Source: Escherichia phage ECO319P1
Sequence record: OP172790
Reading direction: 5' to 3' (one strand)
DNA length: 64,000 bases
Position 1 is the first letter of the stretch. Each line of letters opens with the position of its first letter. The notes under the pieces are model-generated. The model was given only the letters and a program-made list of their open reading frames with translations, was not told the origin of the DNA and searched no databases. Made by a program: the position numbers and the translations under genes. Positions 11,181 through 36,397 of this stretch are shown piece by piece.

Positions 11181-11187
11181 GTATCTC

Positions 11188-16447: not shown

Positions 16448-17025
16448 TGGCTTTACACGATGATTTTGCAATGTACTATAATGGTACATATGTTGGTTAT
16501 CGTAAAGATGGGGATGTAGTCCCCTTCTACATCGAAGCGGTTGATACTGACCGCTCAATCTTTGATTACTCAGAAGCGTCTGAGTCAGAGATGTTCGGTG
16601 ACCAAGCGCTGAGTGCGTTGACCTTCTACGGAAGTATCGACGGCAACCGTGCAACGATTAACCACGACGACCCGAATCTGGTTCTTGAAATGCCAGATAG
16701 TAAGTACATCCAGTTCCGTGGACGTTACTATTGGGTTCAATGGCGAGCGAACCGTTCCACTAAGAAGGGAATGGGTCAGCGTCGTCTCTCAGGCATTCCG
16801 CAATTCAACCATGAAGTCGCTCGTGCGATGTTCTCGGAGCGGTCTGCACCAAACGTAATCGCAGGATGCTTGTTACGTCAGAATAATGAACTTCACTACA
16901 AGGGTGTGGTGGTCGGTTCAATCAATGGCAACGAAGTTGTGTTGGTTTCCGAAGCTGCTCACCTGTTACGTTTTGTATCACGGGAGATGCAGGAATGCCA
17001 AGTTTCGGTAGCACAAGCGGGCTAA
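16447..17025 (+). CDS. hypothetical protein (part of ligase cluster)
   Basis: 192 aa ORF; overlaps the next gene by 31 nt. Confidence 0.4.
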   Translation: MALHDDFAMYYNGTYVGYRKDGDVVPFYIEAVDTDRSIFDYSEASESEMFGDQALSALTFYGSIDGNRATINHDDPNLVLEMPDSKYIQFRGRYYWVQWRANRSTKKGMGQRRLSGIPQFNHEVARAMFSERSAPNVIAGCLLRQNNELHYKGVVVGSINGNEVVLVSEAAHLLRFVSREMQECQVSVAQAG

Positions 17026-18506: not shown

Positions 18507-18565
18507 GAATAAATGTGGGGTGTAAAAGCCCCAACTTCAATGTAAATAGATGAAAGGATTTTTGT

Positions 18566-20536: not shown

Positions 20537-20537
20537 T

Positions 20538-20771
20538 ATGGATAATTCAATGAGTGAAGTGAAGGTTTTGCGTCTGGATTCACCTGTGGTGGTTCGAAAA
20601 GTTCCAATGACTGACTTCGGTAGTGATATGCTCCGAGCCATTCGTCGCTTCCAAACTGAGGCGTATGAACGTGCAAAAGGTCAGAAGGTGGAAATCCCTT
20701 ATCCTGTGTGTATTCACATGATGATGTCGGATTACTGCAAGCTGAAAGGCATCCAAGTAACCAATGGCTGA
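20538..20771 (+). CDS. hypothetical protein
   Basis: 77 aa ORF. Confidence 0.4.
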   Translation: MDNSMSEVKVLRLDSPVVVRKVPMTDFGSDMLRAIRRFQTEAYERAKGQKVEIPYPVCIHMMMSDYCKLKGIQVTNG

Positions 20772-20976
20772 TAAAGATGTCGAAAAGGCTCGCAAGGAAA
20801 GCGAGTCTTGGCACAACCGTCAGATTGGAAACTTGTTAGAAGAAGAGTGGGAGTACGCAAAACAAATGGGTACTCAGGAGGGCCAAGAGGCCATCTGGTA
20901 TCTCACTCTTTCTTATGAAACACTGGAAGCAGAAATCATGGAACACAAACGTGATATCCGTGAACTTCATCTTTGA
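20764..20976 (+). CDS. hypothetical protein
   Basis: 70 aa ORF. Confidence 0.4.
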   Translation: MADKDVEKARKESESWHNRQIGNLLEEEWEYAKQMGTQEGQEAIWYLTLSYETLEAEIMEHKRDIRELHL

Positions 20977-21046
20977 GTGAGTTATTTATAGGGTGTCGGT
21001 GAAGCGCCCTATGTGAAATTCATTCTCAACTAAAAGGTACTTATCA

Positions 21047-22246
21047 ATGGCACGTTTAGCAATCTACTCCCACGCTCCTTCTGATTCTGTTAATGCACTT
21101 AAAGCGCACTTATCAGTGGAAGGCGTTGACCTGATTAAAATCAAGCGTCAGAACAGCCGCTTCGCTGGTCGTGAAGGCGATGTAATCATTAACTATGGTT
21201 CATCCTCTTTCCCAATGGAACGTGTTGGTCGTGGTCGTCTGCTGAACAATCCGGGAGCAATCTCTCTGGCTTCTAACAAACTTCGTGCATTCGAGGTGTT
21301 CCAGAACGCTGGGGTTAAGACTGTAGAGTGGACTAATCAACACTCAATCGCTCAAGGTTGGGTAGAACAAGGTGGTATGGTTTATGCAAGAACAACGCTT
21401 CAAGGACATTCTGGTGCCGGTATCGTTATTGGCTACGGAAATCCTGCCGGAGTGGGAGATGCGGGCGACGTACAGGTTACTAGCACCCTTCCTCGCGCAC
21501 AACTGTACACCAAAGCAATCCTGCAAGAACGTCGAGAGTTCCGAATCCATGTAATGGATGGTAAGATTACTTACGTTCAGCAGAAACGTCGTCGTGATGG
21601 TTTCCGTGAGAATGAAACCTACAGCAATCTGGTTCGTAACCACCACACTGGTTGGATTTATGCAACTCAGAACGCTGATGTGTGTGACGAAGCGAAGCGC
21701 GAAGCAATCAAAGCAATCGAAGCTTTAGGTCTGGACTTCGGTGCAGTAGATGTAATCACACGCCGTGGTGAAGCATGGGTTCTCGAAGTCAACACTGCTC
21801 CGGGCATGTCTGGCACTAACCTCGAAACTTATGCAAACAACTTCACTCGCCTGATGAACGGTGAACCCGTTGAAGGTGTAGTGGTTGATATGTCTATCCC
21901 TGTGGAGACGAACAATGATAACCGCAACACCCGTAATGAACGCCAGTCTGGCAATCGCAATACACAACCTCAACCAGAACAACCTCAACCAGAACAACCG
22001 ACGCCAACCCCTGTCGCTACCCCAGCGCCAACAGCACCAGCCGAAGCGCCGGTTTCCTCAGCGACAACCCGCAACACCAATGGTACTGCATTAATTGATA
22101 ACGGTGTTTACAAACTGTTGGTTGATGGTAATGCCACTGTTGGTAAATTCGTTCAAGATTGTGCCCACTTCGAAATTCTTGGCTGGGAGGTTCCGGTCGA
22201 GCATGAAGATGCAACTATTGGGGAACTCCTGTGCACTTTGAACTAA
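21047..22246 (+). CDS. ATP-grasp ligase (RimK/glutathione-synthetase-like) with Pro/Glu-rich linker and extra C-terminal domain
   Basis: GAVDVITRRGEAWVLEVNTAPGMSG ATP-grasp core; QPQPEQPQPEQPTPTP linker. Confidence 0.65.
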   Translation: MARLAIYSHAPSDSVNALKAHLSVEGVDLIKIKRQNSRFAGREGDVIINYGSSSFPMERVGRGRLLNNPGAISLASNKLRAFEVFQNAGVKTVEWTNQHSIAQGWVEQGGMVYARTTLQGHSGAGIVIGYGNPAGVGDAGDVQVTSTLPRAQLYTKAILQERREFRIHVMDGKITYVQQKRRRDGFRENETYSNLVRNHHTGWIYATQNADVCDEAKREAIKAIEALGLDFGAVDVITRRGEAWVLEVNTAPGMSGTNLETYANNFTRLMNGEPVEGVVVDMSIPVETNNDNRNTRNERQSGNRNTQPQPEQPQPEQPTPTPVATPAPTAPAEAPVSSATTRNTNGTALIDNGVYKLLVDGNATVGKFVQDCAHFEILGWEVPVEHEDATIGELLCTLN

Positions 22247-22484: not shown

Positions 22485-23018
22485 ATGGAAACTGCACATA
22501 GTTTAATTCATAATGGATTCTTAAAAGTACATTCAACAACTGTTGATGGTAAAACTTATGAGTATCTGGAAAGCAAGCCGACTGTCTCTACGCTTCTTGT
22601 GGAACAACAAGGGAACCCTCTGGATGATATCCTCACCATTGGTGTTCAACATCGTATTGGTGCATCTGCTGGGGAGTTGAAAGAAAATGCTATCTACACA
22701 CTCGCCTCTGGTTACGTTGATGGTAATGAGACCACAACTGATGCTGCGCATCGTGAAGCCGAGGAAGAATTTGGGGCACGGGGTCATGTTTTTAAATTGG
22801 GAGCAGGATATAACTCGCCTGGAATCTCAACTCAAATTACGGAAATGTTCTGGATGAATGTCCAAGAATGGCATGAGCCGATTGACCCCGGCGAAGGTGT
22901 GAAGCCTATCAAGTTAACTCTTGGTCAGGTTCTGCACATGGTTAAATCCCCGTTCACAGTGCTCAGTATGCCACTGACGAACACAATCCTGCTTTATGCT
23001 GCAATGCGTGGTGTCTAA
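22485..23018 (+). CDS. Nudix hydrolase (ADP-ribose pyrophosphatase-like)
   Basis: Nudix box GYVDGNETTTDAAHREAEEEFGA. Confidence 0.7.
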   Translation: METAHSLIHNGFLKVHSTTVDGKTYEYLESKPTVSTLLVEQQGNPLDDILTIGVQHRIGASAGELKENAIYTLASGYVDGNETTTDAAHREAEEEFGARGHVFKLGAGYNSPGISTQITEMFWMNVQEWHEPIDPGEGVKPIKLTLGQVLHMVKSPFTVLSMPLTNTILLYAAMRGV

Positions 23019-23249: not shown

Positions 23250-23435
23250 ATGAAAATTCAAGTTACGCTGTGCTCTGGTATTAAACATGAAGCTGATGCT
23301 GATAATATTACTACTGACCCTTCTTGGGTTGTTCTTTCCAAGAAGATTGAAAAGCGTGATACGATTGTTGCCGTATTCCCGGCACACACTGTTGTTGAAG
23401 TTGTTAATAAAACTCATGTTAAGGAAGTGAAATAA
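23250..23435 (+). CDS. hypothetical protein
   Basis: 61 aa ORF. Confidence 0.3.
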   Translation: MKIQVTLCSGIKHEADADNITTDPSWVVLSKKIEKRDTIVAVFPAHTVVEVVNKTHVKEVK

Positions 23436-23947
23436 TGTTGAAACTGATTCCTGCTCGTGGTGGTGTTCGTCATACTTTTGCAAACGGTAGCATCATTAAA
23501 ATTAAACGTGGTGCTGCTCTGACTGGTGAAATCCGAATCGAGTCAGCGCCTCGTGGTAATCGTGCTGTCCTGTACAGCCCAACTGGCGATATCATTCGCT
23601 CTCGTGAGAACACCTTCGCTCTGACCTCTCACAACATCCGTAGCCAGTTCTGGAGCGAGACTTATGGTTGTGCTCTGCATCTGGTTGTACCGGAGCCAAC
23701 TGTTGCTCCTGCTGTCTCTCAGGAACCTGTTGATGATAAGACCAAAGTCATTGACGAGTTCGATGTTGATGGTAAATACATCGTCTGGTGTCCGGGTTCT
23801 GAACTGCCACCTCGCGTAGTTCTGGAAGGTCGTAAACAAGCGAAAGCTGTTGCGATTAGCATGGCTCAACGCCACGGAAAAGAATTCCATTGGTGTCGCC
23901 TGATGGGTTCCGCTAAACCAGTGACCACTATTACTGTAACGGAGTAA
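23435..23947 (+). CDS. hypothetical protein
   Basis: 170 aa ORF. Confidence 0.45.
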   Translation: MLKLIPARGGVRHTFANGSIIKIKRGAALTGEIRIESAPRGNRAVLYSPTGDIIRSRENTFALTSHNIRSQFWSETYGCALHLVVPEPTVAPAVSQEPVDDKTKVIDEFDVDGKYIVWCPGSELPPRVVLEGRKQAKAVAISMAQRHGKEFHWCRLMGSAKPVTTITVTE

Positions 23948-23952: not shown

Positions 23953-24918
23953 TTGAAATTCGAGAAATTCCAATCTCTCGTAAATGAGTCTATGAAGAAC
24001 GTTGGAGGTTTCCTTCGGGATTCCTCCTTCGGGAAACGTAAGGCCATTGTTACCGAGAAAATCCACGGTGCTAACTTCTCTGTCTACTTCGGTTGTAAAG
24101 ACAATGTGGTTGGTATCAACTTCGCTTCTCGTTCTCAGATGCTGTGCCCTGAAACTAACTTCATGAATTGCCAACGCTACTTCACTGAAGAAAAGATTCA
24201 GGAATTGCTGGAACATGCTTCCACAATCATGGCTCTGGACAAATGTGAACTTCGTATCATCGGTGAAATTTACGGTGGCATGGATATCGCTGGAATCAAA
24301 CCCGTTCAGCGAGAAGTCCACTACTCCGGTGATATTGGCTTCCGTGTGTTCCATGCACAAATTGCCAACAACGAAACTGGTGAAGTCTTTGACTACAACT
24401 GGAAGAATGTGAAAGCTCTTGCCAAAGATTTTGGCTTTGAGGTCGCACCAATTGTGGCTGAAGGTCTGACCTTTGAACAGGCTTATGCACTTGACCAGAA
24501 GGTTAAGTCTGCTCTGTCTGACAAAGACCAGATTTGTGAAGGTTACTGTATCCGCGTTGATGCAGATGAAGAAGGTCAAGCACCTTTAATCTTCAAGAAG
24601 CGTAATACTGAGTTCCTTGAAACCAAGGGCACTGTGAAGGCTCCTCAGAATACTGTAGAGCAGACGCAACTCGGTATGGAAGCAATGGCACGTATTGGTG
24701 CATTCATCACACCACAGCGTGTTTCTAACGTCAATAGCCACCACGGTTTCGATAGTCCAAAAGACTTCCAGAAACTGATGGAAGCTGTACTTGATGATGT
24801 GCTCAATGAGTACAAAGCCGAGTATGACGTAGACCTTCGCAATGAGTTGGTCTGGAAAGAAATTAAGCGTTCAGTTGGAGCACAGGTAGTGCCGCTGGTA
24901 CGTGAAGTTCTGCTGTAA
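23953..24918 (+). CDS. RNA ligase-like nucleotidyltransferase (Rnl2-type)
   Basis: motif I lysine in TEKIHGANF; TTG start after GGAG RBS. Confidence 0.6.
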   Translation: MKFEKFQSLVNESMKNVGGFLRDSSFGKRKAIVTEKIHGANFSVYFGCKDNVVGINFASRSQMLCPETNFMNCQRYFTEEKIQELLEHASTIMALDKCELRIIGEIYGGMDIAGIKPVQREVHYSGDIGFRVFHAQIANNETGEVFDYNWKNVKALAKDFGFEVAPIVAEGLTFEQAYALDQKVKSALSDKDQICEGYCIRVDADEEGQAPLIFKKRNTEFLETKGTVKAPQNTVEQTQLGMEAMARIGAFITPQRVSNVNSHHGFDSPKDFQKLMEAVLDDVLNEYKAEYDVDLRNELVWKEIKRSVGAQVVPLVREVLL

Positions 24919-24944
24919 TTATTGCACATTAATATAGGTTAAGG
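24916..24944 (+). promoter_or_regulatory. phage promoter element (TAATTATTGCACATTAATATAGG)
   Basis: conserved element copy. Confidence 0.5.
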
Positions 24945-24952
24945 ATAATCTT

Positions 24953-25561
24953 ATGTTTTTACTTCTGAATGGCTCCAACATCACTGGTATTTCTTCAAAC
25001 GTTGCTGACTTGGTTGCTCATATTAAGAACCTTCATGATTCGGAAAAGTTGAAGTTTGAAACTCCGAATGCTATTCCAGCTTATACAGTGAATAGCTACA
25101 ACAACGCTACGAATTATGCAGCACAGATGATTCGTAACTTGAAGATTATGAAAGTTGTGGGTGACAACCTGTTGCCAATCAACAACAATCCATATCTCCA
25201 ACTGATGAACTGGCAAGGTCATATTCTGGTTGATGGTGTTACTGATATTACAAGTCAGTACTTCACTGTTGAGCAGACAACTTATGACGGCCCACAGAAA
25301 GTGTTTGCAACGGTTGCTAAGAAGGGCTTGAAGTCTTCAGGTATGGATGTTATTGTTGACCCTAATCAGGTCGGTCGTGGCGTTCGTACACCAGAGCAGT
25401 ATGAAGAGTTGTGTGGAACCTTTGCGAAAGTTAAGGTGTCACTGAATATCAATGCAAATGGTTGGTATGGTGCTACACTGTTCATGAGTGCTGACTCTCT
25501 GACAAACTATCGAGTTGAAACTCAGCAGGTCACTGGCTTCAAAGCAGTGTTCGCAGAGTAA
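24953..25561 (+). CDS. hypothetical protein
   Basis: 202 aa ORF bracketed by promoter element and hairpin. Confidence 0.5.
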   Translation: MFLLLNGSNITGISSNVADLVAHIKNLHDSEKLKFETPNAIPAYTVNSYNNATNYAAQMIRNLKIMKVVGDNLLPINNNPYLQLMNWQGHILVDGVTDITSQYFTVEQTTYDGPQKVFATVAKKGLKSSGMDVIVDPNQVGRGVRTPEQYEELCGTFAKVKVSLNINANGWYGATLFMSADSLTNYRVETQQVTGFKAVFAE

Positions 25562-25569
25562 TTTGCAAG

Positions 25570-25600
25570 AAGGCTTCTACGGGAGCCTTGTTTCGAATTT
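25570..25600 (+). terminator. candidate intrinsic terminator
   Basis: stem AAGGCT/AGCCTT with 8-nt loop followed by GTTTCGAATTT. Confidence 0.4.
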
Positions 25601-25616
25601 GTAAAAGGAAAACAGA

Positions 25617-25973
25617 ATGTTAGTAAAAGATGAAAGAGGTAGTATCAATTTTATCGACGAAGAAGATAACTTCGTTGGTTTCAGAAGCTACCAGTGCTGC
25701 TGTGAAAACTTCGGTTGGCATATTACTGACTCGAACGACGAGCACATAAACATTGTGGAAAATGACCCAGAGTTTCTCCGTGGATTCCTCTTCAACACTG
25801 ACAAAGAGCCGACTGAATCTGCTGACTCTGATTATGGTGATGGTGGTAGCGTTAGCTTCCAACTGATAAACAGTATGACAGGTGAAACACTTTGCCTGAC
25901 CCTGTATAACCACCACAACGGTTATTATAGTCACGGATGGCAATCATCCTTTGGTGGAAGTGGCTCCCTCTAA
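25617..25973 (+). CDS. hypothetical protein
   Basis: 118 aa ORF. Confidence 0.4.
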   Translation: MLVKDERGSINFIDEEDNFVGFRSYQCCCENFGWHITDSNDEHINIVENDPEFLRGFLFNTDKEPTESADSDYGDGGSVSFQLINSMTGETLCLTLYNHHNGYYSHGWQSSFGGSGSL

Positions 25974-25982
25974 AAATTTACT

Positions 25983-26015
25983 AAAGGGTTCTTTTTAAGA
26001 ATCCTTTGTTGAATT
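25983..26015 (+). terminator. candidate hairpin terminator
   Basis: 9-bp stem AAAGGGTTC/GAATCCTTT then TTGTTGAATT. Confidence 0.35.
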
Positions 26016-26039
26016 AACCCAAACTGAATAGGATTTAAA

Positions 26040-26474
26040 ATGAAAGAGTTTATGAACCCAAAAGCTGACCACGTATTCATTGCAACTTATGGCTCACTGC
26101 GTCGTAACATGCAGAACTTCCGAGTCAATGCAAGTGGTGGCGGTGAGTTCATCGGTATGGGTAAGACTGATGATAAATACAATCTGTATCGTTATTCAGG
26201 TTGTTATTTCCCAAGCGTCTCACTGAAACACAGCAGCAATGATAAGCAAGTTGTTGTGGATGTATTTGAAGCTCCGGTGGATGGCATGGAAGGGGCATAT
26301 GATATGCTCGAAGGTTATCCGAGCTTCTACAATCGCACTCAGATTCCGGTGACTCTGGAAGATGGTCGTAGCGTTATGGCGTGGATTTATCACATCGACA
26401 CAGAACAATCTGAACTGATTGAATCTGGTGACTGGTGTGAACATAATGTCGAAGACTACTACAAATCACTGTAA
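26040..26474 (+). CDS. gamma-glutamyl cyclotransferase-like (AIG2/GGCT fold) protein
   Basis: N-terminal YGSL motif and YDMLEGYPSFYNR segment. Confidence 0.55.
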   Translation: MKEFMNPKADHVFIATYGSLRRNMQNFRVNASGGGEFIGMGKTDDKYNLYRYSGCYFPSVSLKHSSNDKQVVVDVFEAPVDGMEGAYDMLEGYPSFYNRTQIPVTLEDGRSVMAWIYHIDTEQSELIESGDWCEHNVEDYYKSL

Positions 26475-26495
26475 GTTTTGATATAGAGGTATCCG

Positions 26496-27005
26496 ATGAA
26501 GAAGATTATTGCTGTTGATATCGAACAGGCTGAAGGTGTAGGCTTTGTTGTCTACAACGAAGGAAGTGAGGTTCCCGTGAAAGCGGGAGTCTTTAAGATT
26601 GGTGATGGTGTTAAGATTAAGAATAATGATATTCTTTCTAATACCACAGCAGGCACCCTACAGGGTTTTAGCTACAGTTCAGCGAAAAACTTACTGGCTC
26701 ATATTCATTGGCTGGCTGGTGCTCCTCCGATTAAAACCCTTTTGTCAAACATTGTCCTCGACCGACCTCAGAAGTTTTGGTTAGTTGCGGGTGATATGGA
26801 GAGTACAGGGCAGCCAGCCCATGCTCACTATACAACTGGCGGTCTTCGTGACGTCCGAGCGGGGACTCATGCTCCTCGTGTTCGCTACTGGTCTGAGCAA
26901 GAAGCCATCCAGCAAGCGACTCAAATGACTAATACCTACGGAATCAGGCACTTAGTCTTTGAGGCCACATTTGGTTGTAATTCTGACAACCACTTTGCAC
27001 TATAA
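26496..27005 (+). CDS. hypothetical protein
   Basis: 169 aa ORF. Confidence 0.45.
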   Translation: MKKIIAVDIEQAEGVGFVVYNEGSEVPVKAGVFKIGDGVKIKNNDILSNTTAGTLQGFSYSSAKNLLAHIHWLAGAPPIKTLLSNIVLDRPQKFWLVAGDMESTGQPAHAHYTTGGLRDVRAGTHAPRVRYWSEQEAIQQATQMTNTYGIRHLVFEATFGCNSDNHFAL

Positions 27006-27054
27006 TCGGATACGGTGCAACTAGGAATAATTTTCTGACACGGAATAATGGAAT

Positions 27055-28854
27055 ATGTCAAAAGTATACGGAGCTAAACGGATTATCGGTGACTCACCTT
27101 GCCCAACTTGTACAGCGGCAGGTCGTGACAGAACCGGTAATCACTTGCAACACTGGATTAACGATGATACAGGCGAAGAGTGGGTTTATTGCGGACGTGA
27201 TGGTTACTATGAAAAGGTAACTGATGCAAACCGTGCTGACCTTGAATCTGTTCGTCATGTTCATCGTGAATTAACTGATGAAGAACGTGCAGCGGTTCTC
27301 GCTGAGGTTGACGAGTTGCCAATTCAGGAACTCACATCTCGTGGTATCCGAAAGGAAATCGCTGAACGTTATGGTGTTCGTGTTGGCCTGTCCAGCACTA
27401 ACCGTGAACAAATCTCTCACTTCTATCCGAAAGAGAAAGATGGTGAGGTGGTCGCTTATAAAGTTCGTAGTCTTGAGCCGAAGTATTTCTATGCGGTTGG
27501 TTCAGGTAGCGGATGTGATTTCTTTGGCATGTCTCAGGCTCGTCTGGGTGATGTGTACAGTGGCAAACTGTTCGTATTCGAAGATGAACTGAGTGCAATG
27601 TCAGGTTTCCAAGCTCTCATTGACGCATCCAAGTCAACTTACAAACCAGCATGTGTGGCTTTGCCAGATGGTGCAGGTTCGGCAGCAAGTGCATTTGCAC
27701 GTTGTCGTCAGTTTGTTGAGTCATTCCAAGATATCGTGGTCTGTATGGATAACGATGAAGCGGGTGATGATGCAGTTAACAAGCTGAGAGCGATGTATCC
27801 AAACATCAAGATTGCTCGTATTCCGAAGGGTATCTACGGTGACGGTAAGCATATCAAAGACGCCAATGACATGATTATGGCTAAGCGTTCTTTGGAGTTA
27901 AACAACTGCTTACGCTTCAATGCTGCAAAAGAATCTCCAGCAGGTTCAACAACTGTAGCGGAATGTATTGAAGATGCGCTGAAGAAACCTGAATGGGGTC
28001 TGAGTTATCCGTGGAAAGGTCTTACTGACTTAACCTTTGGTTTACGTTATGGTGAGGTGATTGCAATTGGTGGTGGTGTAGGTGGTGGTAAAACATTACT
28101 GGCACACGAACTGAGTGCTCACTTAATCAACGTTCACAAAGAGAAAGTTGGTGCATTCATGTTGGAAGAAACTGTAGGTAATACCATCAAGAACATTGCT
28201 GGTAAATCTGCAAATATTCCATTCCATCGTCCAGATGCTGAGTTCGACCCAGAACTGCTGAAAAGCGAAGCACTGAAATACGATGGTCACTTGTTCCTGT
28301 ATCGTAACTTCGGTCAAAACGATTGGGAAGATATCAAACGTTGTATGCGTTTCTGGGTTGTTGAACATGGTGTCAAGTTCATCTTCCTCGATAACATCAC
28401 AGCATTGGTATCACACTTGACAGCAACTGAGATTAACACTGAAGTTGCGAAGATTGCTGTTGAGTTGGCAGGTATGTGTAACGAGTTGGACTTCACTTGT
28501 TTTGTATTTAGCCACTTGAACCCACCGAAAGGTGGTGCTCCTCACGAGGAAGGTGGTCAAGTACAAGAGGTGCAGTTCACGGGTTCCCGTGCTCTGATGC
28601 GTTTCTCTCAGTTAATTCTGGGCTTTGAACGCAACAAGCAGGCAGATGGTGATGCTCGTAACCTTTCTCAGATTCGTCTGTTGAAAGACCGTAACTTCGG
28701 GCAGACAGGTCTTGTACCAACATCTTATAATCCAGTGACAGGCCGCTTAACACAGCGTCGTGATGAAGATTATGACCCGAAAAATCCGTTCCGCTTACCG
28801 GGTGAGCATGAGGACGACATGCAGGAAGATAATGGAAAGGATAAACCATTTTGA
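27055..28854 (+). CDS. bifunctional primase-helicase (T7 gp4-like)
   Basis: N-terminal Zn-binding Cys cluster, Toprim acidic motifs (FEDE, MDNDEAGDD), Walker A GGGVGGGKT. Confidence 0.85.
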   Translation: MSKVYGAKRIIGDSPCPTCTAAGRDRTGNHLQHWINDDTGEEWVYCGRDGYYEKVTDANRADLESVRHVHRELTDEERAAVLAEVDELPIQELTSRGIRKEIAERYGVRVGLSSTNREQISHFYPKEKDGEVVAYKVRSLEPKYFYAVGSGSGCDFFGMSQARLGDVYSGKLFVFEDELSAMSGFQALIDASKSTYKPACVALPDGAGSAASAFARCRQFVESFQDIVVCMDNDEAGDDAVNKLRAMYPNIKIARIPKGIYGDGKHIKDANDMIMAKRSLELNNCLRFNAAKESPAGSTTVAECIEDALKKPEWGLSYPWKGLTDLTFGLRYGEVIAIGGGVGGGKTLLAHELSAHLINVHKEKVGAFMLEETVGNTIKNIAGKSANIPFHRPDAEFDPELLKSEALKYDGHLFLYRNFGQNDWEDIKRCMRFWVVEHGVKFIFLDNITALVSHLTATEINTEVAKIAVELAGMCNELDFTCFVFSHLNPPKGGAPHEEGGQVQEVQFTGSRALMRFSQLILGFERNKQADGDARNLSQIRLLKDRNFGQTGLVPTSYNPVTGRLTQRRDEDYDPKNPFRLPGEHEDDMQEDNGKDKPF

Positions 28855-29345
28855 TTAAACTTGCAGCCACGGATATTGAAACGAATGGATTGTACTTTGA
28901 TGTAAATCTATTTCACTGTGCATGGATTGTGGAGCCATTAACCGGAAAACGGTTTGGCTTCCGTCCAGACCAACTTAAAGAATACGTTGAGAAGTTAATG
29001 ACTTATGACATTCTCATTGGTCACAACGTAATCGACTATGACTTCCCAACTATTAAGAAACTTTGTCCGGGATTTGAATGTCCGGCTGTTTTTGATACGT
29101 TGGTTCTTAGTCGTATGTTGGAACCAGACAGACCACAAGGTCACTCGTTGAAATCTTGGGGTGTAGCTCTTGGTTTGCTGAAAGGTGATTATGGTGAACA
29201 GGAAGATGCGTGGGACGTATTCACAGAGGACATGTATGTTTACTGTGAACGAGACGTTGACGTAACGGTTCTGCTCTATAAACACCTGTGTGAAAAGGCC
29301 GGTTTTGACTGGCAAAATCCACCATCAAATACTTTCAAATTCTGA
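28851..29345 (+). CDS. 3'-5' exonuclease domain of T7-type DNA polymerase, encoded as a separate gene
   Basis: Exo I DIETNGL, Exo II HNVIDYDF, Exo III YCERDVD; close to my recollection of T7 gp5 N-terminus; TTG start overlapping upstream stop. Confidence 0.75.
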   Translation: MIKLAATDIETNGLYFDVNLFHCAWIVEPLTGKRFGFRPDQLKEYVEKLMTYDILIGHNVIDYDFPTIKKLCPGFECPAVFDTLVLSRMLEPDRPQGHSLKSWGVALGLLKGDYGEQEDAWDVFTEDMYVYCERDVDVTVLLYKHLCEKAGFDWQNPPSNTFKF

Positions 29346-29361
29346 GTAAGGATACTCTGCG

Positions 29362-29383
29362 TTGGGTACTATAATATGTACCC
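29362..29383 (+). promoter_or_regulatory. variant promoter-like element inside a short palindrome
   Basis: TTGGGTACTATAATAT resembles the TTGCACATTATAATA core; GGGTAC/GTACCC inverted repeat around TATAAT. Confidence 0.3.
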
Positions 29384-29488
29384 TCGCTATTTTATTATGG
29401 ATAGCCTAATGGAAATCGCTGGAATCATGTTCCAGTATGATAGCGACCTTGATATTATTTTCGTAACTGATGAAATGGAGATTCTATA

Positions 29489-30043
29489 ATGTTACTTTCT
29501 GCACCCCAACTGCATAACTTAATCGACGATGGTGTTATTGATGCGTTACATGAAAACGTTAACTCAGCAAGTATCGACGTTCGTATTGGCTCTGAAATTC
29601 TGGTGGAAGCTAAGGTCAGCGAACTCACCGCTCCCGTGGACATCGCAGCTAAGGAATCTCCTCAGTTCGACAAAGTGACAATCCCCGAAGAAGGCGTTGT
29701 TATTAAGCCGGGTCAGTGCTTCTTGGCTCACACCGTTGAGACATTTAACCTGCCCGACACTATCAGTGGTCAATTCATTGAACGTTCCACTGTTGCTCGT
29801 TGTTTCCTTGAACACATGCAGGCTGGTTGGGCTGATGCTGGTTGGCATGGCGCTCAGCTCACTCTTGAGTTCAAGAACATGAACGAACACCACTCCCTGT
29901 TAATCAAGCCGGGTATGCGTATCGGTCAGATGGTATTCTTCCAGCACGAAACTGTTGGTGAGGATTCCTATGCTGTAAAAGGCAACTACAACAACCAACG
30001 TGGTGCAACTCAAGCTTACTCAGGAGAAGGTCATAATGTATAA
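29489..30043 (+). CDS. dcd: dCTP deaminase
   Basis: dUTPase-fold Dcd-like N-terminus; 184 aa. Confidence 0.7.
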   Translation: MLLSAPQLHNLIDDGVIDALHENVNSASIDVRIGSEILVEAKVSELTAPVDIAAKESPQFDKVTIPEEGVVIKPGQCFLAHTVETFNLPDTISGQFIERSTVARCFLEHMQAGWADAGWHGAQLTLEFKNMNEHHSLLIKPGMRIGQMVFFQHETVGEDSYAVKGNYNNQRGATQAYSGEGHNV

Positions 30044-30320
30044 GATTATTAAGTTCTACAGCGACACTTGTGCGCCTTGTAAAGCAATGGCTCCAATCTT
30101 TGACGACATTGCAGAAGAACTGTCCACAGATACTGTGGTATTCGGTTCAACCAACATCGGTGAAAGTGACAACCGCGCTGTTGCTCAGTCATTCGGTGTT
30201 CGTGGTCTTCCGACTGTTGTGATTCTGAAAGATGATGAAGCAGTTGGCATCAAAACTGGTGCTCAGACTAAAGATTCACTGAAGAAATTCATTACCGACA
30301 CAATTGGGGAGGCCAGCTAA
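30036..30320 (+). CDS. thioredoxin
   Basis: CAPC active site; start at ATG 30036 after GGAGAAGG RBS. Confidence 0.7.
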   Translation: MYKIIKFYSDTCAPCKAMAPIFDDIAEELSTDTVVFGSTNIGESDNRAVAQSFGVRGLPTVVILKDDEAVGIKTGAQTKDSLKKFITDTIGEAS

Positions 30321-30589
30321 TGGCCTTACTTAATCACATCCACCGCGACATGCTTAATCGTGTTATCAAACATGAAGATATTGTCGTCTGGTCAAATGGT
30401 AAGTACAACCAAAAGATGCGCTTAGCGCGTGTGGTTGATACTACACCTCAGAAGGTTCGCATCCAGTTGATTGACTCCCAGACAACCACACTGGCTCGCC
30501 CTCGGAATTTAATCGTTATCAGTGCTCAGATTGCTGCTAATCTGGAAGGTAACGTTGGTGCTAACATGGATATGGAGGCCACCCGATGA
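30320..30589 (+). CDS. hypothetical protein
   Basis: 89 aa ORF. Confidence 0.4.
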   Translation: MALLNHIHRDMLNRVIKHEDIVVWSNGKYNQKMRLARVVDTTPQKVRIQLIDSQTTTLARPRNLIVISAQIAANLEGNVGANMDMEATR

Positions 30590-31038
30590 TTCCTACGAAA
30601 CCTAAATCTTCAAGCAAGTCAAGTACAGACACTCTGCAAAGTTTGACTGGCAACCTGACTCTGCTTTACATCAAAGCAAAGAACTATCACTGGAATACAA
30701 CCGGCCCGAACTTCTACGGAGACCATCACACCTTTGATGGGATTCAGGATGGAGCATTGGACTGGATTGATACAGTTGGTGAACGTATTCGTGCACTGCA
30801 ACAGGGCATCTGTGCTTGTGCTGCTGCGTATCTTGAAGATGCGTGGTTCCCAGAAGGTGACTTTGAGTTAGACGCCGAGGGAATGAAAGCGGATATGGTT
30901 AAAACTCTTGACTGTATCAGTGCTCATATCATGGACATGATTAAGAGCGGCGAATTCGATGAAGTAACCTCTAACATCCTTCAGGATTTATGTGCATTCA
31001 TTGATAAGCAGAATTACTTTGTACGTAGTTCTCTGTAA
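30586..31038 (+). CDS. Dps-like ferritin-fold protein
   Basis: LYIKAKNYHWNTTGPNFYGDHHTFDGIQDG...VGERIRAL pattern of Dps. Confidence 0.55.
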   Translation: MIPTKPKSSSKSSTDTLQSLTGNLTLLYIKAKNYHWNTTGPNFYGDHHTFDGIQDGALDWIDTVGERIRALQQGICACAAAYLEDAWFPEGDFELDAEGMKADMVKTLDCISAHIMDMIKSGEFDEVTSNILQDLCAFIDKQNYFVRSSL

Positions 31039-31044
31039 GTAATA

Positions 31045-31070
31045 GGCTGGCGGATGCTGGCCTTTTCTGT
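31045..31070 (+). terminator. intrinsic terminator
   Basis: 7-bp stem (two G-U pairs), GGAT loop, TTTT tail. Confidence 0.5.
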
Positions 31071-31088
31071 CTATACAAGGAGTGTATA

Positions 31089-33212
31089 ATGGTTCGTGTA
31101 ACTAAACGTGATGGTAAGAACGTCGAGTTTGATATTAACCGTGTGATTAATGCCATTATGGCTGCTCAAAGCAATTTGGGTAAATCAAACTTTGATGAAG
31201 CACTGTCGATTGCAATGGCTGTGCAAGACCGATACATCAACGAAGAAAGTGTAACGATTGCTGATATTCAGAGTATGGTTGAAGACCTGCTGATGGTGAA
31301 AGACCCAGAGGTGGCTCGTAAGTATATCGAATATCGTGCAAAGCGTGACCGTGCTCGTGAGGAACAGTCCCCATTGGCGGTTGCCATTCGTGGATTAGTG
31401 GAGCAGACGGATGAATCAATCCTCAAAGAAAACGCTAACAAGGACGCAAAAGTCTTCCCTGTACAGCGAGATTTACTGGCAGGCGTGGTGTCTAAGCACT
31501 TCGCTCGCAATTACCTTCTTCCTCGTGATATTGTTGATGCTCACGAGAGAGGCGAAATTCATTACCACGATTTGGACTACTCTCCATTCCTACCTATGAC
31601 CAACTGTTGTTTGGTTGACCTCAAGGGTATGTTGAAGAATGGTTTCAAGTTAGGTAACGCTCAGATTGAGTCACCGAAATCTATTGGTGTGGCATGTGCA
31701 GTAATGGCTCAGATTACCGCTCAAGTTGCTTCTCACCAGTACGGTGGGACGACGTTCGCTAATATTGACCAAGTACTCGCACCGTATGCAGAGACAACCT
31801 TTAATAAGCACATGCAACGTGGTTATGATTGGGGGGTTTCAGATACGGAAGCCTATGCCAAAGAACTCACTGTTAAAGAAATTTATGATGGGATTCAAGC
31901 ATATGAATACGAAATTAATACCCTCTTCACCACAAATGGACAGCAACCATTCGTTACTGTTACATTCGGTATGGGAACTAGCTGGTTCGAACGAGAAATC
32001 CAGAAAGCAATCCTCAAGGTTCGTATTAAGGGTCTCGGCGCGGAAGGTCTCACTGCGGTTTTCCCGAAACTCGTAATGTTCATGGACGAGGGTATCAACC
32101 TTAAACCGGAAGACCCGAATTATGATATTAAGCAGCTTGCACTTGAATGCTCCTCCAAGCGTCTGTATCCAGATATTATCAGCGCGAAAGCTAACAGAGC
32201 TATCACTGGCTCAAACGTACCTGTTAGTCCTATGGGGTGTCGTTCTTTCCTCAGTGTGTGGAAGGACGGAGATGGAAATGAGGTGCTCGACGGACGCAAC
32301 AACCTCGGCGTTGTTAGTCTCAACCTTCCTCGTATTGCCATCGAATCAGGGAAGGATTTCAACAAATTCCTCACTATCCTTGACGAACGCCTTACACTTG
32401 CTAAAAGAGCACTTGATACCCGCATTGAACGCTTACGTGGTGTTAAAGCTGCTGTTGCCCCAATTCTCTACACCGAGGGAGCGTTTGGAGTTCGTCTCCA
32501 ACCCGATGATGATATCATCAATATCTTCAAGCACGGTCGAAGCTCTATTAGCTTGGGATACATCGGACTCCATGAAGTCGGACTTCTGATGTGGGATAAG
32601 TCCCCTTCGGATGATGAAGAAGTTGCACGTTCTTGTCGAGCAATTATTCGTCATTTAGCTAATGCTACTGAGAGGTGGAAGGAAGAGTCTGAAGAGGGCT
32701 GGGGTTATAGCTTATACGCTACACCTTCAGAGTCTCTGTGTGACCGATTCTGTCGTTTGGATAAAGAACAATTTGGGGAGATTGCTGGTGTCACTGACAA
32801 AGATTATTACACTAATAGTTTCCATCAGGATGTTTATAAGCATTCTAACCCTTTCGACAAGATTGACCATGAAGCGCCTTATCACTTTATTTCAAGTGCG
32901 GGTCATATTAGCTATGCTGAGTTTCCGAATGTTCGTAACAACCTCCAAGGTTTGGAAACAGTTTGGGACTACGCAATGAGCCATCTGGACTACTTCGGGA
33001 CAAACACTCCGAGCGATAAATGCTTGAAGTGCCACTTCGAAGGTGAGTTCAAGATTAACAGTGAAGGTTTCCACTGTCCGAATTGCGGCAATCATGACAG
33101 CAAATCAATGTCAGTGATTCGTCGTGTATGTGGGTATTTGGGTTCTCCAAATGCTCGTGGATTTAACCACGGAAAGAACGAGGAGGTCATTCGTCGTGTC
33201 AAACATGTCTGA
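31089..33212 (+). CDS. nrdD: anaerobic ribonucleoside-triphosphate reductase
   Basis: ATP-cone N-terminus, C-terminal glycyl-radical motif RRVCGYLGS and Zn ribbon CLKC...CPNC. Confidence 0.9.
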   Translation: MVRVTKRDGKNVEFDINRVINAIMAAQSNLGKSNFDEALSIAMAVQDRYINEESVTIADIQSMVEDLLMVKDPEVARKYIEYRAKRDRAREEQSPLAVAIRGLVEQTDESILKENANKDAKVFPVQRDLLAGVVSKHFARNYLLPRDIVDAHERGEIHYHDLDYSPFLPMTNCCLVDLKGMLKNGFKLGNAQIESPKSIGVACAVMAQITAQVASHQYGGTTFANIDQVLAPYAETTFNKHMQRGYDWGVSDTEAYAKELTVKEIYDGIQAYEYEINTLFTTNGQQPFVTVTFGMGTSWFEREIQKAILKVRIKGLGAEGLTAVFPKLVMFMDEGINLKPEDPNYDIKQLALECSSKRLYPDIISAKANRAITGSNVPVSPMGCRSFLSVWKDGDGNEVLDGRNNLGVVSLNLPRIAIESGKDFNKFLTILDERLTLAKRALDTRIERLRGVKAAVAPILYTEGAFGVRLQPDDDIINIFKHGRSSISLGYIGLHEVGLLMWDKSPSDDEEVARSCRAIIRHLANATERWKEESEEGWGYSLYATPSESLCDRFCRLDKEQFGEIAGVTDKDYYTNSFHQDVYKHSNPFDKIDHEAPYHFISSAGHISYAEFPNVRNNLQGLETVWDYAMSHLDYFGTNTPSDKCLKCHFEGEFKINSEGFHCPNCGNHDSKSMSVIRRVCGYLGSPNARGFNHGKNEEVIRRVKHV

Positions 33213-33237
33213 TGAACATCCGGATTTTTAGTATCGA

Positions 33238-33266
33238 GGGGCTCCTGCGGGAGCCTTTTCTTTTTG
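33238..33266 (+). terminator. intrinsic terminator after nrdD
   Basis: GGCTCC-TGCG-GGAGCC hairpin followed by TTTTCTTTTT. Confidence 0.7.
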
Positions 33267-33276
33267 GAGGTTTAAA

Positions 33277-33429
33277 TGATTGTTCGTAACCGATTGACTG
33301 GTCAATTCGAAAATGCCACTTTCAAAGATGGCTGTTGGGGTTTCCATGAAACTGACGTACAAGAAGGGCTGCCTGATTGCAGCACTGAAGAACAAAGAAG
33401 TGGAAGCGATAGCTCACCAAGCTAATTGC
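33277..33429 (+). CDS. small upstream ORF (50 aa) overlapping the macro gene start
   Basis: strong GGAGG RBS 5 nt upstream of ATG 33277; different frame from macro gene. Confidence 0.3.
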
Positions 33430-33816
33430 TTTTGCACCATGAAGTCTGGCATAGCACCACAGATTGCTAATGCTTGGCCTCAAGTCCGTGAAGTCGATAA
33501 GTTGACTAACTACGGTGACAAGGATAAGATGGGTTCATACTCACTTGCCACTGTTCCCGAAGGTTTTGTGTTCAACATCTATGGTCAATACCATTGGAAT
33601 CGGAGAAACGCTGGTTATGGCACTTCTTATGAGCATCTTGGGATGGGGCTGTCTAGCGTCGCTGACTTTATGGTTAATCATAAGGTTCAAACTTTGGGTC
33701 TGCCTCGAATTGGTTGTGGACTTGCTGGAGGCGATTGGGGGATTGTAGAACACCTAATCAAACACCACTTTGCACACACCGACATTGAAGTAATTGTCTA
33801 CGAACTGGAGAAGTAA
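33346..33816 (+). CDS. macro domain protein
   Basis: KLTYKKGCLIAALKNKEVEAIAHQAN aligns with the macro N-terminal G...AN motif; start placed at ATG 33346. Confidence 0.65.
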   Translation: MKLTYKKGCLIAALKNKEVEAIAHQANCFCTMKSGIAPQIANAWPQVREVDKLTNYGDKDKMGSYSLATVPEGFVFNIYGQYHWNRRNAGYGTSYEHLGMGLSSVADFMVNHKVQTLGLPRIGCGLAGGDWGIVEHLIKHHFAHTDIEVIVYELEK

Positions 33817-34943
33817 TGTTAAAGTTAAAAGTACTGGAAGAACTCGGTAAGCCATACAAAATCTTCACAGACCATGTGGAGAGCAGTGCTATTGAGCAGT
33901 TTGTTGCAGTGATGCAGCAGCCTGATGTGAAACAAGGTGCATTAATGCCTGATGTTCATGCAGGTTATGTTCTGCCAATTGGTGGTGTAGTTGCTACTGA
34001 GTGGACAATCTACCCATCGTTTGTCGGTTACGACATTGGTTGTGGTGTCTGCACCATGCCAACGGATATCAGTGCTCTCGACTTACTGGAAAACCCAGCT
34101 AAGTATAAAGCAGCAGTTGAAAAGGTTGTACCTGTGGGCTTCACTGTCCATCAGCAACCATTCGACTTAGCTGAACTGGAACGCCACATTGGTCGTGCTC
34201 CAGAAAGTATTCGTGACATTGCTGAGAGCCATCTGACTCAGGTTGGTACTCTTGGTGGTGGTAATCACTTTGTTGAAATCGGTATCGCTGAGAAAGATGG
34301 TCGTGTTCACATCAGCATTCACTCAGGCTCTCGTGGCATGGGTGCTCGTGTTGCTGAGAAATACATGCAGCTTTCAGGTGGTGAAGGTATCAACCCAATT
34401 GACACTCGTGAACCACTTGGTCGTGAGTATCTGGCTGCTATGAATTACTGCTTACGTTGGGCATTGTTCAACCGTAAGATGATGGTTAAGAATATTATGG
34501 AAGAGTTAGGTCTGGAGTTTAACACCTATCGTACACCTGATATCTTCATCAACCGTAATCATAACCACGCAGAATTCAAGGATGGTTTGTGGATTCATCG
34601 TAAGGGAGCTACACATGCTGAAGATGGAATGTTCGGCGTTATCCCAGCTAACATGCGTGATGGAGTTTACATTGTACGTGGGCGCGGTAACCCTGACTCT
34701 CTTTGCTCTTCTTCTCACGGCGCTGGTCGTGTCATGTCTCGGTCAAAAGCCAAAAAGACTTTCTCTCTGGAAGACTTCCAGTATCAGATGGGTAATGTCG
34801 ATGCTGATGGGTTTACTATTGATGAAAAGCGTATTGACGAAGCACCGGGTGCATATAAAGACATTCACGAAGTGATGAAAAATCAGACTGACTTGATTGA
34901 CATCATTGACCATGTTAAACCAGTTGTAAACGTTAAGGGTTAA
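33816..34943 (+). CDS. rtcB: RtcB-type RNA ligase
   Basis: GGNHF, HNHAEF and SSSHGAGR motifs. Confidence 0.8.
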   Translation: MLKLKVLEELGKPYKIFTDHVESSAIEQFVAVMQQPDVKQGALMPDVHAGYVLPIGGVVATEWTIYPSFVGYDIGCGVCTMPTDISALDLLENPAKYKAAVEKVVPVGFTVHQQPFDLAELERHIGRAPESIRDIAESHLTQVGTLGGGNHFVEIGIAEKDGRVHISIHSGSRGMGARVAEKYMQLSGGEGINPIDTREPLGREYLAAMNYCLRWALFNRKMMVKNIMEELGLEFNTYRTPDIFINRNHNHAEFKDGLWIHRKGATHAEDGMFGVIPANMRDGVYIVRGRGNPDSLCSSSHGAGRVMSRSKAKKTFSLEDFQYQMGNVDADGFTIDEKRIDEAPGAYKDIHEVMKNQTDLIDIIDHVKPVVNVKG

Positions 34944-34945
34944 TT

Positions 34946-35194
34946 ATGAGCTTCACAACAATGCCAACTTGTCCACGCTGTAGCTTCAAGATGCACATCA
35001 GTGCTCGCGGTCAGTATAGTTGTTCCAATTGTGGACACCGTAAGGATATTCCGGGAAGTTCTTCTAACAGTGGAACTCCGGCATATGACCCTTGGGTTAT
35101 GAGTCAGTACGACTCTACTCCGAGCTATGACCCAACACCATCTTACTCAAGTGACTGCTCAAGCTCTGACTTTGGCAGTTGCTCTTTCGACTAA
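34946..35194 (+). CDS. small zinc-ribbon protein with Ser/Pro-rich tail
   Basis: CPRC...CSNC. Confidence 0.4.
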   Translation: MSFTTMPTCPRCSFKMHISARGQYSCSNCGHRKDIPGSSSNSGTPAYDPWVMSQYDSTPSYDPTPSYSSDCSSSDFGSCSFD

Positions 35195-35203
35195 GGCGGA
35201 ATA

Positions 35204-35704
35204 ATGAATTACCATCAATATTACCCAACGGATATGCTAAATGGGCCGGGAATCAGGAACGTACTCTTCGTCAGTGGTTGCACACACGGATGCAAAGGTT
35301 GTTACAATGAGTCTACTTGGAATCCAAAATCGGGTATGGCCTTCACAAAAGAGTTGGAAGACCAGATTATCCGAGACCTCCAAGATACGCGAATCAAGCG
35401 TGATGGACTCACCCTCTCCGGAGGTGACCCGCTTCATGAAAGAAATATTCTACCCCTCATTCAGTTAGTACAGCGAGTGAGAAAAGAGTGCCCCGATAAG
35501 ACAATCTGGATGTGGACTGGATATACGCTTCCTGAACTGGAGGCTATGCGTGACCACACTCAGGTTCACAGTGACCGGTATTATCTGGCAACACTTGTTG
35601 ATGTTCTTGTTGATGGTAAGTTTGTTCAAGAGTTGCATGACCCTACGCTGAAGTTTGTTGGGTCGTCCAATCAAAACATTATCGAAATTAAAAATGTATC
35701 GTAA
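35204..35704 (+). CDS. nrdG: anaerobic RNR activating enzyme (radical SAM)
   Basis: C-x3-C-x2-C cluster in GCTHGCKGC near N-terminus; 166 aa. Confidence 0.75.
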   Translation: MNYHQYYPTDMLNGPGIRNVLFVSGCTHGCKGCYNESTWNPKSGMAFTKELEDQIIRDLQDTRIKRDGLTLSGGDPLHERNILPLIQLVQRVRKECPDKTIWMWTGYTLPELEAMRDHTQVHSDRYYLATLVDVLVDGKFVQELHDPTLKFVGSSNQNIIEIKNVS

Positions 35705-36369: not shown

Positions 36370-36372
36370 GGA

Positions 36373-36397
36373 AGCTGCCTTCGGGCGGCTTTTGTTG
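36373..36397 (+). terminator. intrinsic terminator (UUCG tetraloop)
   Basis: AGCTGCC-TTCG-GGCGGCT then TTTTGTTG. Confidence 0.65.

Follow-up and report, generated by a model that had tools for sequence, protein, structure and literature searches.

The window, that is, the whole stretch of 64,000 nucleotides analysed here from Escherichia phage ECO319P1 (OP172790), has about 88% identity to the Cronobacter phages GAP52 and A24 (Grimontviridae, Crifsvirus). It appears to be the DNA of a Cronobacter podophage of the GAP52/A24 type, and both of its RNA ligases would belong to the early/middle gene block. The predicted ligase genes and the features around them are as follows.

22485 to 23018, + strand: Nudix protein of 177 aa, about 0.9 kb upstream of the Rnl2 gene, weakly like ADP-ribose pyrophosphatases
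23953 to 24918, + strand: Rnl2-family ATP-dependent RNA ligase of 321 aa with a TTG start (Pfam, PDB, AF2/Foldseek)
33236 to 33259, + strand: terminator-like hairpin (10-bp stem, then a T run) that separates nrdD from the macro-RtcB unit
33313 to 33816, + strand: macrodomain protein of the TARG1/DarG/SCO6735 class, 167 aa (PHROG, NCBIfam, PADLOC, PDB)
33816 to 34943, + strand: RtcB 3'-phosphate/5'-hydroxyl RNA ligase of 375 aa (Pfam PF01139, structure alignments)
34946 to 35194, + strand: zinc-ribbon ORF of 82 aa, immediately downstream of RtcB in a shared transcription unit
36370 to 36393, + strand: terminator-like hairpin closing the unit of the macrodomain gene, RtcB, the zinc-ribbon ORF, nrdG and small ORFs

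Both ligase ORFs are present exactly where the original prediction had placed them. About 9 kb separates the two genes, which lie in separate transcription units. The gap, which is outside the feature under study, contains genes for a primase/helicase, an exonuclease, dCTP deaminase, thioredoxin, a ferritin-like protein and NrdD. An ATP-dependent DNA ligase is encoded by a distinct gene at 43793-44881. Transcription units were drawn from strong hairpin terminators alone; a promoter scan, with 28 sites where 27.3 were expected, gave no information.

The Rnl2-family ligase and its neighbours

The first ligase ORF has GGAG 8 nt upstream of its start codon. It matches the Pfam families RNA_ligase PF09414 (E 7.5e-17, 62.4 bits) and T4_Rnl2_C PF18043 (E 1e-9, 39.1 bits), each above the gathering score of 27, and PHROG 548 'RNA ligase' (5.9e-57); RNA_lig_T4_1 gives only an overlapping, sub-threshold Pfam match. 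A nucleotidyltransferase domain occupies residues 1 to about 225, and a helical Rnl2 C-terminal domain residues of about 235 to 321. Among the PDB sequences matched, T4 Rnl2 (2hvq) ranks first (1.3e-11). The AF2 model (pLDDT 89.8) has C-terminal helices at 235-320, and its top Foldseek matches are 2hvr/2hvq, full-length, at E 3e-18. The product is thus identified, by sequence and model, as an Rnl2-family RNA ligase that is predicted to fold like full-length T4 Rnl2.

Motif I, in which the original prediction had recognised KIHGAN, reads E35-K36-I-H38-G-A-N41 and corresponds to T4 E34, K35, H37 and N40. E35, K36, H38 and N41 are invariant in the 17- and 32-sequence alignments, and K36 is the predicted AMP-accepting lysine. 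Motifs Ia, III and IV and the first lysine of motif V are represented by R60, E105, E196 and K215 (T4 R55, E99, E204 and K225), and F133 of motif IIIa corresponds to T4 F119; all are invariant or nearly so. Q119 (T4 Q106) is also conserved, and R256 and D282 of the C-terminal domain (T4 R266 and D292) are invariant in both alignments. That the enzyme might instead be a DNA ligase or a capping-type enzyme does not apply, given the Rnl2 signature residues and C-terminal domain, the separate DNA ligase of the phage and the fold matches of only E about 1e-3 to those two classes.

T4 RNA ligase 2 (gp24.1, RnlB; PDB 2HVQ/2HVR) shares the two-domain architecture and fold, the motif I lysine with its flanking signature Glu and Asn, and the further equivalents given above. 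In contrast, the phage enzyme is only about 26% identical to it, has a shorter insert before motif IV and differs at two catalytic-motif positions. The Asp of motif IIIa is missing, with H134 replacing T4 D120 at a position that is variable within the clade, and R217 replaces T4 K227, the second lysine of motif V. The resulting K-[KR]-R pattern is common to the whole Rnl2 clade, its Arg being near-invariant (at least 90% of sequences in alignment A3). In T4 Rnl2, K227 contacts the AMP phosphate and is important for enzyme adenylylation (PMC3149579). The ORF scores 87.6 bits against the NCBIfam equivalog TIGR02307 (Rnl2), the cut-off of which is 197; this score and the two replacements speak against the repair role favoured below.

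Upstream, the Nudix ORF matches Pfam NUDIX (2e-4), NCBIfam YffH/AdpP (2.5e-5) and the PDB ADP-ribose pyrophosphatase 1v8i (0.005). Its orthologues in two distant relatives, L012 and L014, lie directly upstream of Rnl2. The protein is more likely to act in NAD+/ADP-ribose metabolism than in RNA repair.

Rnl2-type enzymes are nick-sealing ligases on duplex RNA and join 3'-OH to 5'-P ends. To our knowledge, no role of T4 Rnl2 in vivo has been established. The family preference for duplex nicks also counts against the favoured repair role, as anticodon-nuclease cuts fall in single-stranded loops. T4 Rnl2 accepts RNA:DNA hybrid nicks where the 3'-OH side is RNA, and in many relatives the Rnl2 gene has a fixed position in the gene order, immediately before GGACT and primase/helicase. 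Both points would suit an enzyme of replication or transcript processing, sealing for example RNA 3'-OH/5'-phosphate nicks in RNA:DNA hybrids, rather than one of defence evasion. Such a use is nevertheless highly improbable, given that Rnl2 is absent from phage 7-11, L101 and L102, related phages with the same replication machinery, and that the Rnl2 neighbours in relatives are commonly NAD+-salvage and other accessory counter-defence genes.

RtcB and the adjoining macrodomain gene

In the second ligase ORF, residues 28-375 match the whole Pfam RtcB model PF01139, positions 1-426 (E 7.5e-80), in agreement with its earlier naming as RtcB. The E-values of both ligase ORFs lie far outside what chance would give. 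Alignments to the P. horikoshii and T. thermophilus structures place the predicted metal/GTP site at D46, H48, D73, C76, N150, H151, H169 and H249, equivalent to P. horikoshii D65, H67, D95, C98, N202, H203, H234 and H329. P. horikoshii H404 corresponds to H301, the predicted GMP-accepting histidine. The active-site residues, including H301, are invariant in five phage orthologues. From these alignments the product is assigned as full-length RtcB, with all metal-binding residues and the putative His-GMP nucleophile kept. RtcB enzymes join 3'-P or 2',3'-cyclic-P ends to 5'-OH ends.

The phage enzyme is 37% identical over its full length to the RNA repair ligase RtcB1 of E. coli K-12, with the active-site residues all conserved. 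Unlike that enzyme, which is encoded in the RtcR-regulated rtcBA operon, it is about 30 residues shorter, and neither the RtcA cyclase nor RtcR of the bacterial Rtc operon (RtcA-RtcB-RtcR) is found among its neighbours, which are the macrodomain gene, the zinc-ribbon ORF and nrdG. E. coli RtcB2-PrfH is a ribosome repair module for colicin E3 damage (PMC9223846, PMC13166195). The phage protein resembles RtcB2 in length (375 against 379 aa), and short-form RtcB models are its best NCBIfam matches, but all fall far below their cut-offs (TIGR03073: 155 bits against 272). No release-factor domain or PrfH gene was found among the scanned window proteins. An RtcB2/PrfH-type identity was rejected because the enzyme is closer to RtcB1 than to intact PrfH-linked RtcB2 (37% against 28%).

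The macrodomain ORF matches PHROG 335 (2.5e-53), DarG models of NCBIfam (3e-12) and PADLOC (3.6e-15), and the PDB entries 5e3b (1e-13) and 4j5r, TARG1 (1e-10). Its reading frame and that of RtcB share one base where stop and start codon meet (TAATG), and the unit sits between nrdD and nrdG. The 82-aa ORF downstream has weak Pfam zinc-ribbon matches below cut-offs, belongs to PHROG 29294 (unknown function) and is conserved in A24. The macrodomain gene adjoins RtcB in A24 and L103, and also in L101 and L102, where the two genes stand in reverse order on the opposite side of nrdD, so that adjacency survives rearrangement. The macrodomain may tentatively be regarded as functionally linked to RtcB.

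TARG1-type macrodomains de-ADP-ribosylate RNA ends, and ADP-ribosylated ends are not ligated by E. coli RtcB (PMC9458441). This biochemistry, the DarG/TARG1 class of the protein, the overlapping genes, the adjacency in both gene orders and the flanking nrdD and nrdG would fit an action of RtcB and the macrodomain on damaged ends of nucleic acids, possibly DNA, instead of on tRNA cut by nucleases. The macrodomain would remove ADP-ribose (DarT-type or end-linked), and RtcB would join 3'-phosphate to 5'-OH. A role at DNA ends is possible because RtcB lies in a nucleotide/DNA-metabolism unit beside this macrodomain, and this counts against the repair role favoured below. We regard such a damage function as improbable. 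The macrodomain family occurs mostly without RtcB: phage 7-11 and eight IMG/VR loci (L004-L011) have it with neither RtcB nor Rnl2 nearby, and a macro-like ORF is present at merely one of 80 distant RtcB loci. Conversely, RtcB has no adjacent macrodomain gene in P59, L012 and L014. The macrodomain gene also stands beside an nrdD fragment in 7-11, so RtcB may just have been inserted alongside it.

Adjacency in two gene orders and the same biochemistry are also the grounds for a narrower proposal, in which the macrodomain would be an unrecognised end-healing partner of RtcB, stripping off RNA (or DNA) 3'-phosphate ends the ADP-ribose caps with which a host ADP-ribosyltransferase would prevent repair, and restoring a sealable 3'-phosphate. 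This is quite unlikely. A general linkage of macrodomain and RtcB was rejected, and it is retained solely as a lineage-restricted lead.

End-healing enzymes and distribution of the ligases

Pfam searches of about 60 window proteins gave no Pnkp, 2H, KptA, HAD or Rnl1, and none is present in the full A24 annotation. Apart from the helicase, NrdD and the polymerase, no window protein showed a Walker-A, paired 2H or HAD motif in a motif scan. Three ORFs by Rnl2 (23435-23947, 24953-25561 and 25617-25973) were considered as a cryptic kinase or phosphatase and rejected; they match just PHROGs of unknown function and DUF7448. PADLOC gives nothing for the three, nor does NCBIfam for the first two. Partners among tRNAs and structured RNAs were likewise rejected: the window contains no tRNA genes and has zero Rfam matches. 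A24 has just three tRNA genes, all outside the region homologous to the window.

Both ligases are kept at the same places in A24, GAP52 and L103, all of the Crifsvirus-like genomes sampled. L012 and L014, two distantly related members of the phage group, have both ligase genes in a single gene string, separated by 1-2 kb. RtcB is found without Rnl2 in P59, L101 and L102, while L015, L016 and L017 have Rnl2 without RtcB within the sampled 10-kb flanks. Neither ligase is annotated in the examined region of phage 7-11, which has tRNA genes instead. The relatives thus gain and lose Rnl2 and RtcB independently, and this independent occurrence is an observation against the favoured repair role. Beyond the relatives, co-occurrence was judged from an 80-locus neighbourhood sample and the literature; a PF09414 RNA ligase lies within 10 kb of RtcB at seven to eight of the 80 unrelated viral loci.

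The patchy distribution, the distance of 9 kb and the different transcription units would be expected if the ligases were unrelated accessory genes, separately acquired and kept, with no combined repair strategy. This is possible but on balance doubtful, considering the close spacing in L012 and L014, the retention of both genes throughout the sampled Crifsvirus-like genomes and the repeated presence of an ATP-dependent RNA ligase near RtcB in unrelated viral contigs.

Repair of RNA breaks and known systems

Gene presence, family, fold, catalytic residues, the missing healing enzymes and conservation in relatives were obtained here; from family knowledge we infer the enzymatic activity, substrates and biological role of both ligases. 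The explanation that we favour, and consider fairly probable, is that the two mechanistically unrelated RNA ligases act independently and complement each other in counter-defence, repairing tRNA, rRNA or mRNA of the host or the phage, and do not form a two-enzyme pathway.

In RtcB (GTP, Mn2+), His301 would be guanylylated and would pass GMP onto the RNA 3'-phosphate, after opening of any 2',3'-cyclic phosphate, and the 5'-OH would then attack and seal the break. In the Rnl2-type enzyme (ATP), Lys36 would be adenylylated and would pass AMP onto the 5'-phosphate, which the 3'-OH of a duplex-held nick would attack. The targets of RtcB would be the cuts of metal-independent RNases, such as anticodon nucleases and colicin-type, MazF-type and HEPN-type enzymes, and those of Rnl2 would be 3'-OH/5'-P nicks from metal-dependent nucleases. 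With no kinase, phosphatase, 2H or KptA, each ligase would be limited to one type of break, that of its own end chemistry.

The original prediction had the two enzymes sealing different RNA end chemistries without needing a polynucleotide kinase. The family assignments are right, the chemistry being that known for the families, and both points hold since no Pnkp, 2H, KptA, HAD or Rnl1 was found and the DNA ligase is separate. Its further suggestion, that the ligases may jointly repair tRNA or rRNA, is conjectural and not new. The Burkholderia jumbo phages BcepSaruman and BcepSauron have RtcB, Rnl1 and Rnl2, and such multi-ligase sets are read as non-redundant repair of breaks by different RNases (PMC7824862).

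These jumbo phages and the phage studied here have in common that they combine RtcB with an ATP-dependent RNA ligase. The latter is in contrast a podophage of about 75 kb and not a jumbo phage, has no Rnl1, polynucleotide kinase, HAD/2H phosphoesterase, KptA or RlaP, and has a close relative (A24) with only three tRNA genes. T4 Pnkp-Rnl1 tRNA repair against the PrrC anticodon nuclease has the same presumed purpose, the re-sealing of host-inflicted RNA breaks. T4 has Rnl1 and Pnkp in addition to Rnl2, whereas neither is found here; an end-healing step is lacking, and RtcB would join cyclic-phosphate and 5'-OH ends directly.

The two-ligase observation holds but is unremarkable. The GAP52 and A24 records already name these genes "RNA ligase 2" and "RNA-splicing ligase", and other phages have been described that combine the two enzymes, so that little is added as discovery. 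The small new points are the change of K227 to Arg and D120 to His in the Rnl2 clade, and the tight coupling of RtcB and macrodomain that survives rearrangement. If the family predictions are true, a medium-sized phage would re-seal both RNA end chemistries without any end-healing enzyme. This would be an economical answer to bacterial immunity that relies on RNases, and what Rnl2-type ligases do in vivo could then be studied readily in this 75-kb genome, two relatives of which, GAP52 and A24, are in culture.

The two RNA ligase genes

The window shares 88-89% DNA identity with the Cronobacter phages A24 and vB_CsaP_GAP52 across 90-95% of the length. Both phages belong to the Grimontviridae (Crifsvirus) and are related to Salmonella phage 7-11. 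The + strand carries one unbroken block of early and middle genes from about 1.7 to 48.5 kb; near 48500 these give way to structural genes on the - strand, and the GC skew flips there too. The early region includes a TerC membrane protein and two TerD-domain proteins (9127-11927), which are tellurite-resistance-type stress genes. A phiEco32/7-11-type cassette (15650-22246 and 26040-26474) is kept in all relatives examined, and comprises a COOH-NH2 ligase, an amidoligase, a glutamine amidotransferase, a RimK-like ATP-grasp protein, and a gamma-glutamyl cyclotransferase. Two RNA ligase ORFs lie at the predicted coordinates, with Pfam matches far beyond chance:

23953-24918, + strand: Rnl2-like RNA ligase ORF, 321 aa, TTG start
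33816-34943, + strand: RtcB ORF, 375 aa, ATG start

The TTG start of the Rnl2-like ORF has GGAG 8 nt upstream and lies directly behind the stop of the previous ORF. The protein has two Pfam matches, to RNA_ligase (PF09414, 7.5e-17) and to the C-terminal domain of T4 Rnl2 (PF18043, 1e-9). By sequence, its closest solved structure is T4 Rnl2 (2hvq, 1.3e-11), and the trypanosome editing ligase comes second. It was aligned with T4 Rnl2, one T4-like RnlB, and 14 metagenomic homologues. The motif I nucleophile and both Rnl2 signature neighbours are kept (E35, K36, H38, N41), as are R60, E105, Q119, F133, E196, and K215 (T4 R55, E99, Q106, F119, E204, and K225) and the C-terminal R256 and D282 (T4 R266 and D292). 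Two T4 residues are replaced. D120 of motif IIIa is H134, a position with His or other residues in the clade, and K227 of motif V is R217, which belongs to a K-[KR]-R pattern near-invariant in the clade (at least 90% of 32 aligned sequences). In T4 Rnl2, K227 makes contact with the AMP phosphate and plays an important part in enzyme adenylylation (PMC3149579); the Arg at this position is therefore a caveat on the predicted activity. The replacements possibly reflect a changed adenylylation chemistry in the clade.

In the AlphaFold2 model (32 input sequences; mean pLDDT 89.8), a C-terminal domain of four helices follows an alpha/beta domain. The model's top Foldseek matches are full-length T4 Rnl2 (2hvr/2hvq, E 3e-18 to 2e-16), TbREL1, and the T4 Rnl2 N-domain, while DNA ligases and capping enzyme are reached only near E 1e-3. 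The refuting outcome named in the original prediction, an identity as DNA ligase or capping enzyme, does not apply, because T4 Rnl2 is the best fold match and a separate ATP-dependent DNA ligase is encoded at 43793-44881. The Rnl2 family assignment is upheld.

The RtcB assignment is upheld as well. PF01139 is matched over the whole model (7.5e-80), and the metal, GTP, and nucleophile positions are conserved. Alignment with P. horikoshii and T. thermophilus structures places these at D46, H48, D73, C76, N150, H151, H169, H249, and H301; all nine are invariant in the orthologues of A24, Proteus phage P59, and two metagenomic relatives. The best NCBIfam matches are short-paralogue models, including the release-factor-H-coupled type, all far under their cut-offs. 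Identity is 37% end to end with E. coli K-12 RtcB, versus 28% with the intact PrfH-linked RtcB2 of E. coli RM10466. These values rule out the short, PrfH-coupled RtcB2 type and assign the protein, on sequence grounds, to canonical RtcB in a slightly shortened form. Metagenomic relatives of 365-390 aa number in the thousands.

End-healing enzymes and tRNAs

The original prediction held that the pair could repair RNA with no polynucleotide kinase, and the gene content agrees. Pfam scans of ~60 window proteins detected no polynucleotide kinase/phosphatase, 2H, KptA/Tpt1, HAD, or Rnl1 protein. Motif scans confine Walker-A to the helicase, NrdD, and the polymerase, and find neither paired 2H motifs nor HAD motif I. 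The complete A24 annotation, including ~12 kb beyond the window, lists no end-healing enzymes. With none detected, each ligase would work only on its own native end chemistry. The window has no tRNA genes and no Rfam match. The additional A24 region has three tRNA genes:

A24 1808-2245: tRNA-Trp, tRNA-Pro, and tRNA-Phe, adjoining the terminase gene, outside the window-homologous region

Distribution among relatives

Members of the Rnl2 clade share 40-70% identity. Their slot is fixed in many contigs from the same phage group (L012-L017, L103, L104), with an ATP-grasp gene on one side and GGACT/primase-helicase on the other, and NAD+-salvage genes often adjoin. A DUF7448 ORF (25617-25973) lies two genes downstream of Rnl2; in a single case, an unrelated IMG/VR contig (L076), a homologue (4548-4874; 36% identity, E 2e-12) is directly upstream of RtcB.

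The position of RtcB is more mobile. It follows nrdD in the window, A24, and L103, precedes it in L101 and L102, and lies elsewhere in P59. In L012 and L014 it precedes Rnl2 by just 1-2 kb, with the gene order NadR-like, Nudix, RtcB, Nudix, Rnl2, PnuC; in L015-L017 it is missing from the 10-kb flanks of Rnl2. For phage 7-11, the analysis covered a 49-kb region (replication and early genes), whose annotation has tRNA genes and a Sir2 in place of any RNA ligase. Because position and presence vary, the two ligases are accessory genes gained and lost independently, sometimes clustered, and no obligate pair. Their co-occurrence recurs in phages generally: of 80 diverse IMG/VR RtcB loci, 7-8 have an RNA ligase of family PF09414 no more than 10 kb away.

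The macrodomain neighbour and the role of the ligases

The gene directly upstream of RtcB is labelled "phosphatase" in the A24/GAP52 records:

33313-33816, + strand: macrodomain ORF, TARG1/DarG/SCO6735 class

Its phage 7-11 orthologue is noted as like the Tk.4 protein of T4-like phages. The RtcB ATG overlaps the macrodomain stop (TAATG), and the two ORFs are translationally coupled. A strong terminator-like hairpin lies on each side (33236 and 36370) of one unit consisting of macrodomain, RtcB, Zn-ribbon ORF, nrdG, and small ORFs. nrdD and nrdG (31089-35704) are split by a terminator-like hairpin and the macrodomain, RtcB, and zinc-ribbon insert; their L101 and L102 counterparts have just one or two small ORFs between them. 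A24 and L103 keep the macrodomain gene next to RtcB. L101 and L102 do as well, but with the two genes swapped and placed on the opposite side of nrdD, yet the gaps are 0-5 nt throughout (window 33313-34943; L101 10001-11616; L102 10001-11615).

TARG1-type macrodomains strip ADP-ribose off RNA ends, and 3'- or 5'-ADP-ribosylated RNA is not ligated by E. coli RtcB (PMC9458441). An end-healing role for the macrodomain is hence coherent but improbable; the family is mostly found without any RNA ligase, which counts against a link to RtcB. In L013 (6181-8381), Rnl2 is followed by two metallophosphoesterase genes around a macrodomain orthologue, which could be an alternative end-healing set.

NAD+/ADP-ribose genes (6380-8932, 46716-47393, 22485-23018, and 33313-33816) comprise a ribose-phosphate pyrophosphokinase, nicotinamide phosphoribosyltransferase (NadV), PnuC NMN transporter, ADP-ribose-pyrophosphatase-like Nudix, and the macrodomain. 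These genes resemble a kit for rebuilding NAD+ in the face of NAD-depleting defences. An NMN adenylyltransferase was not detected in the window, but a NadR-like enzyme of this kind occurs in L012 and L014.

The ligase finding is already known as annotation, since the A24/GAP52 GenBank/RefSeq records carry "RNA ligase 2" or "RNA ligase" and "RNA-splicing ligase" or "tRNA splicing ligase", and as a concept, the same reading having been published for jumbo phages by Iyer et al. (PMC7824862). The literature search found no paper discussing the pairing for GAP52 or 7-11-like phages. The mechanism of both ligases follows from family knowledge, any joint action of the two would be hypothetical, and their predicted role, RNase counter-defence, is plausible.
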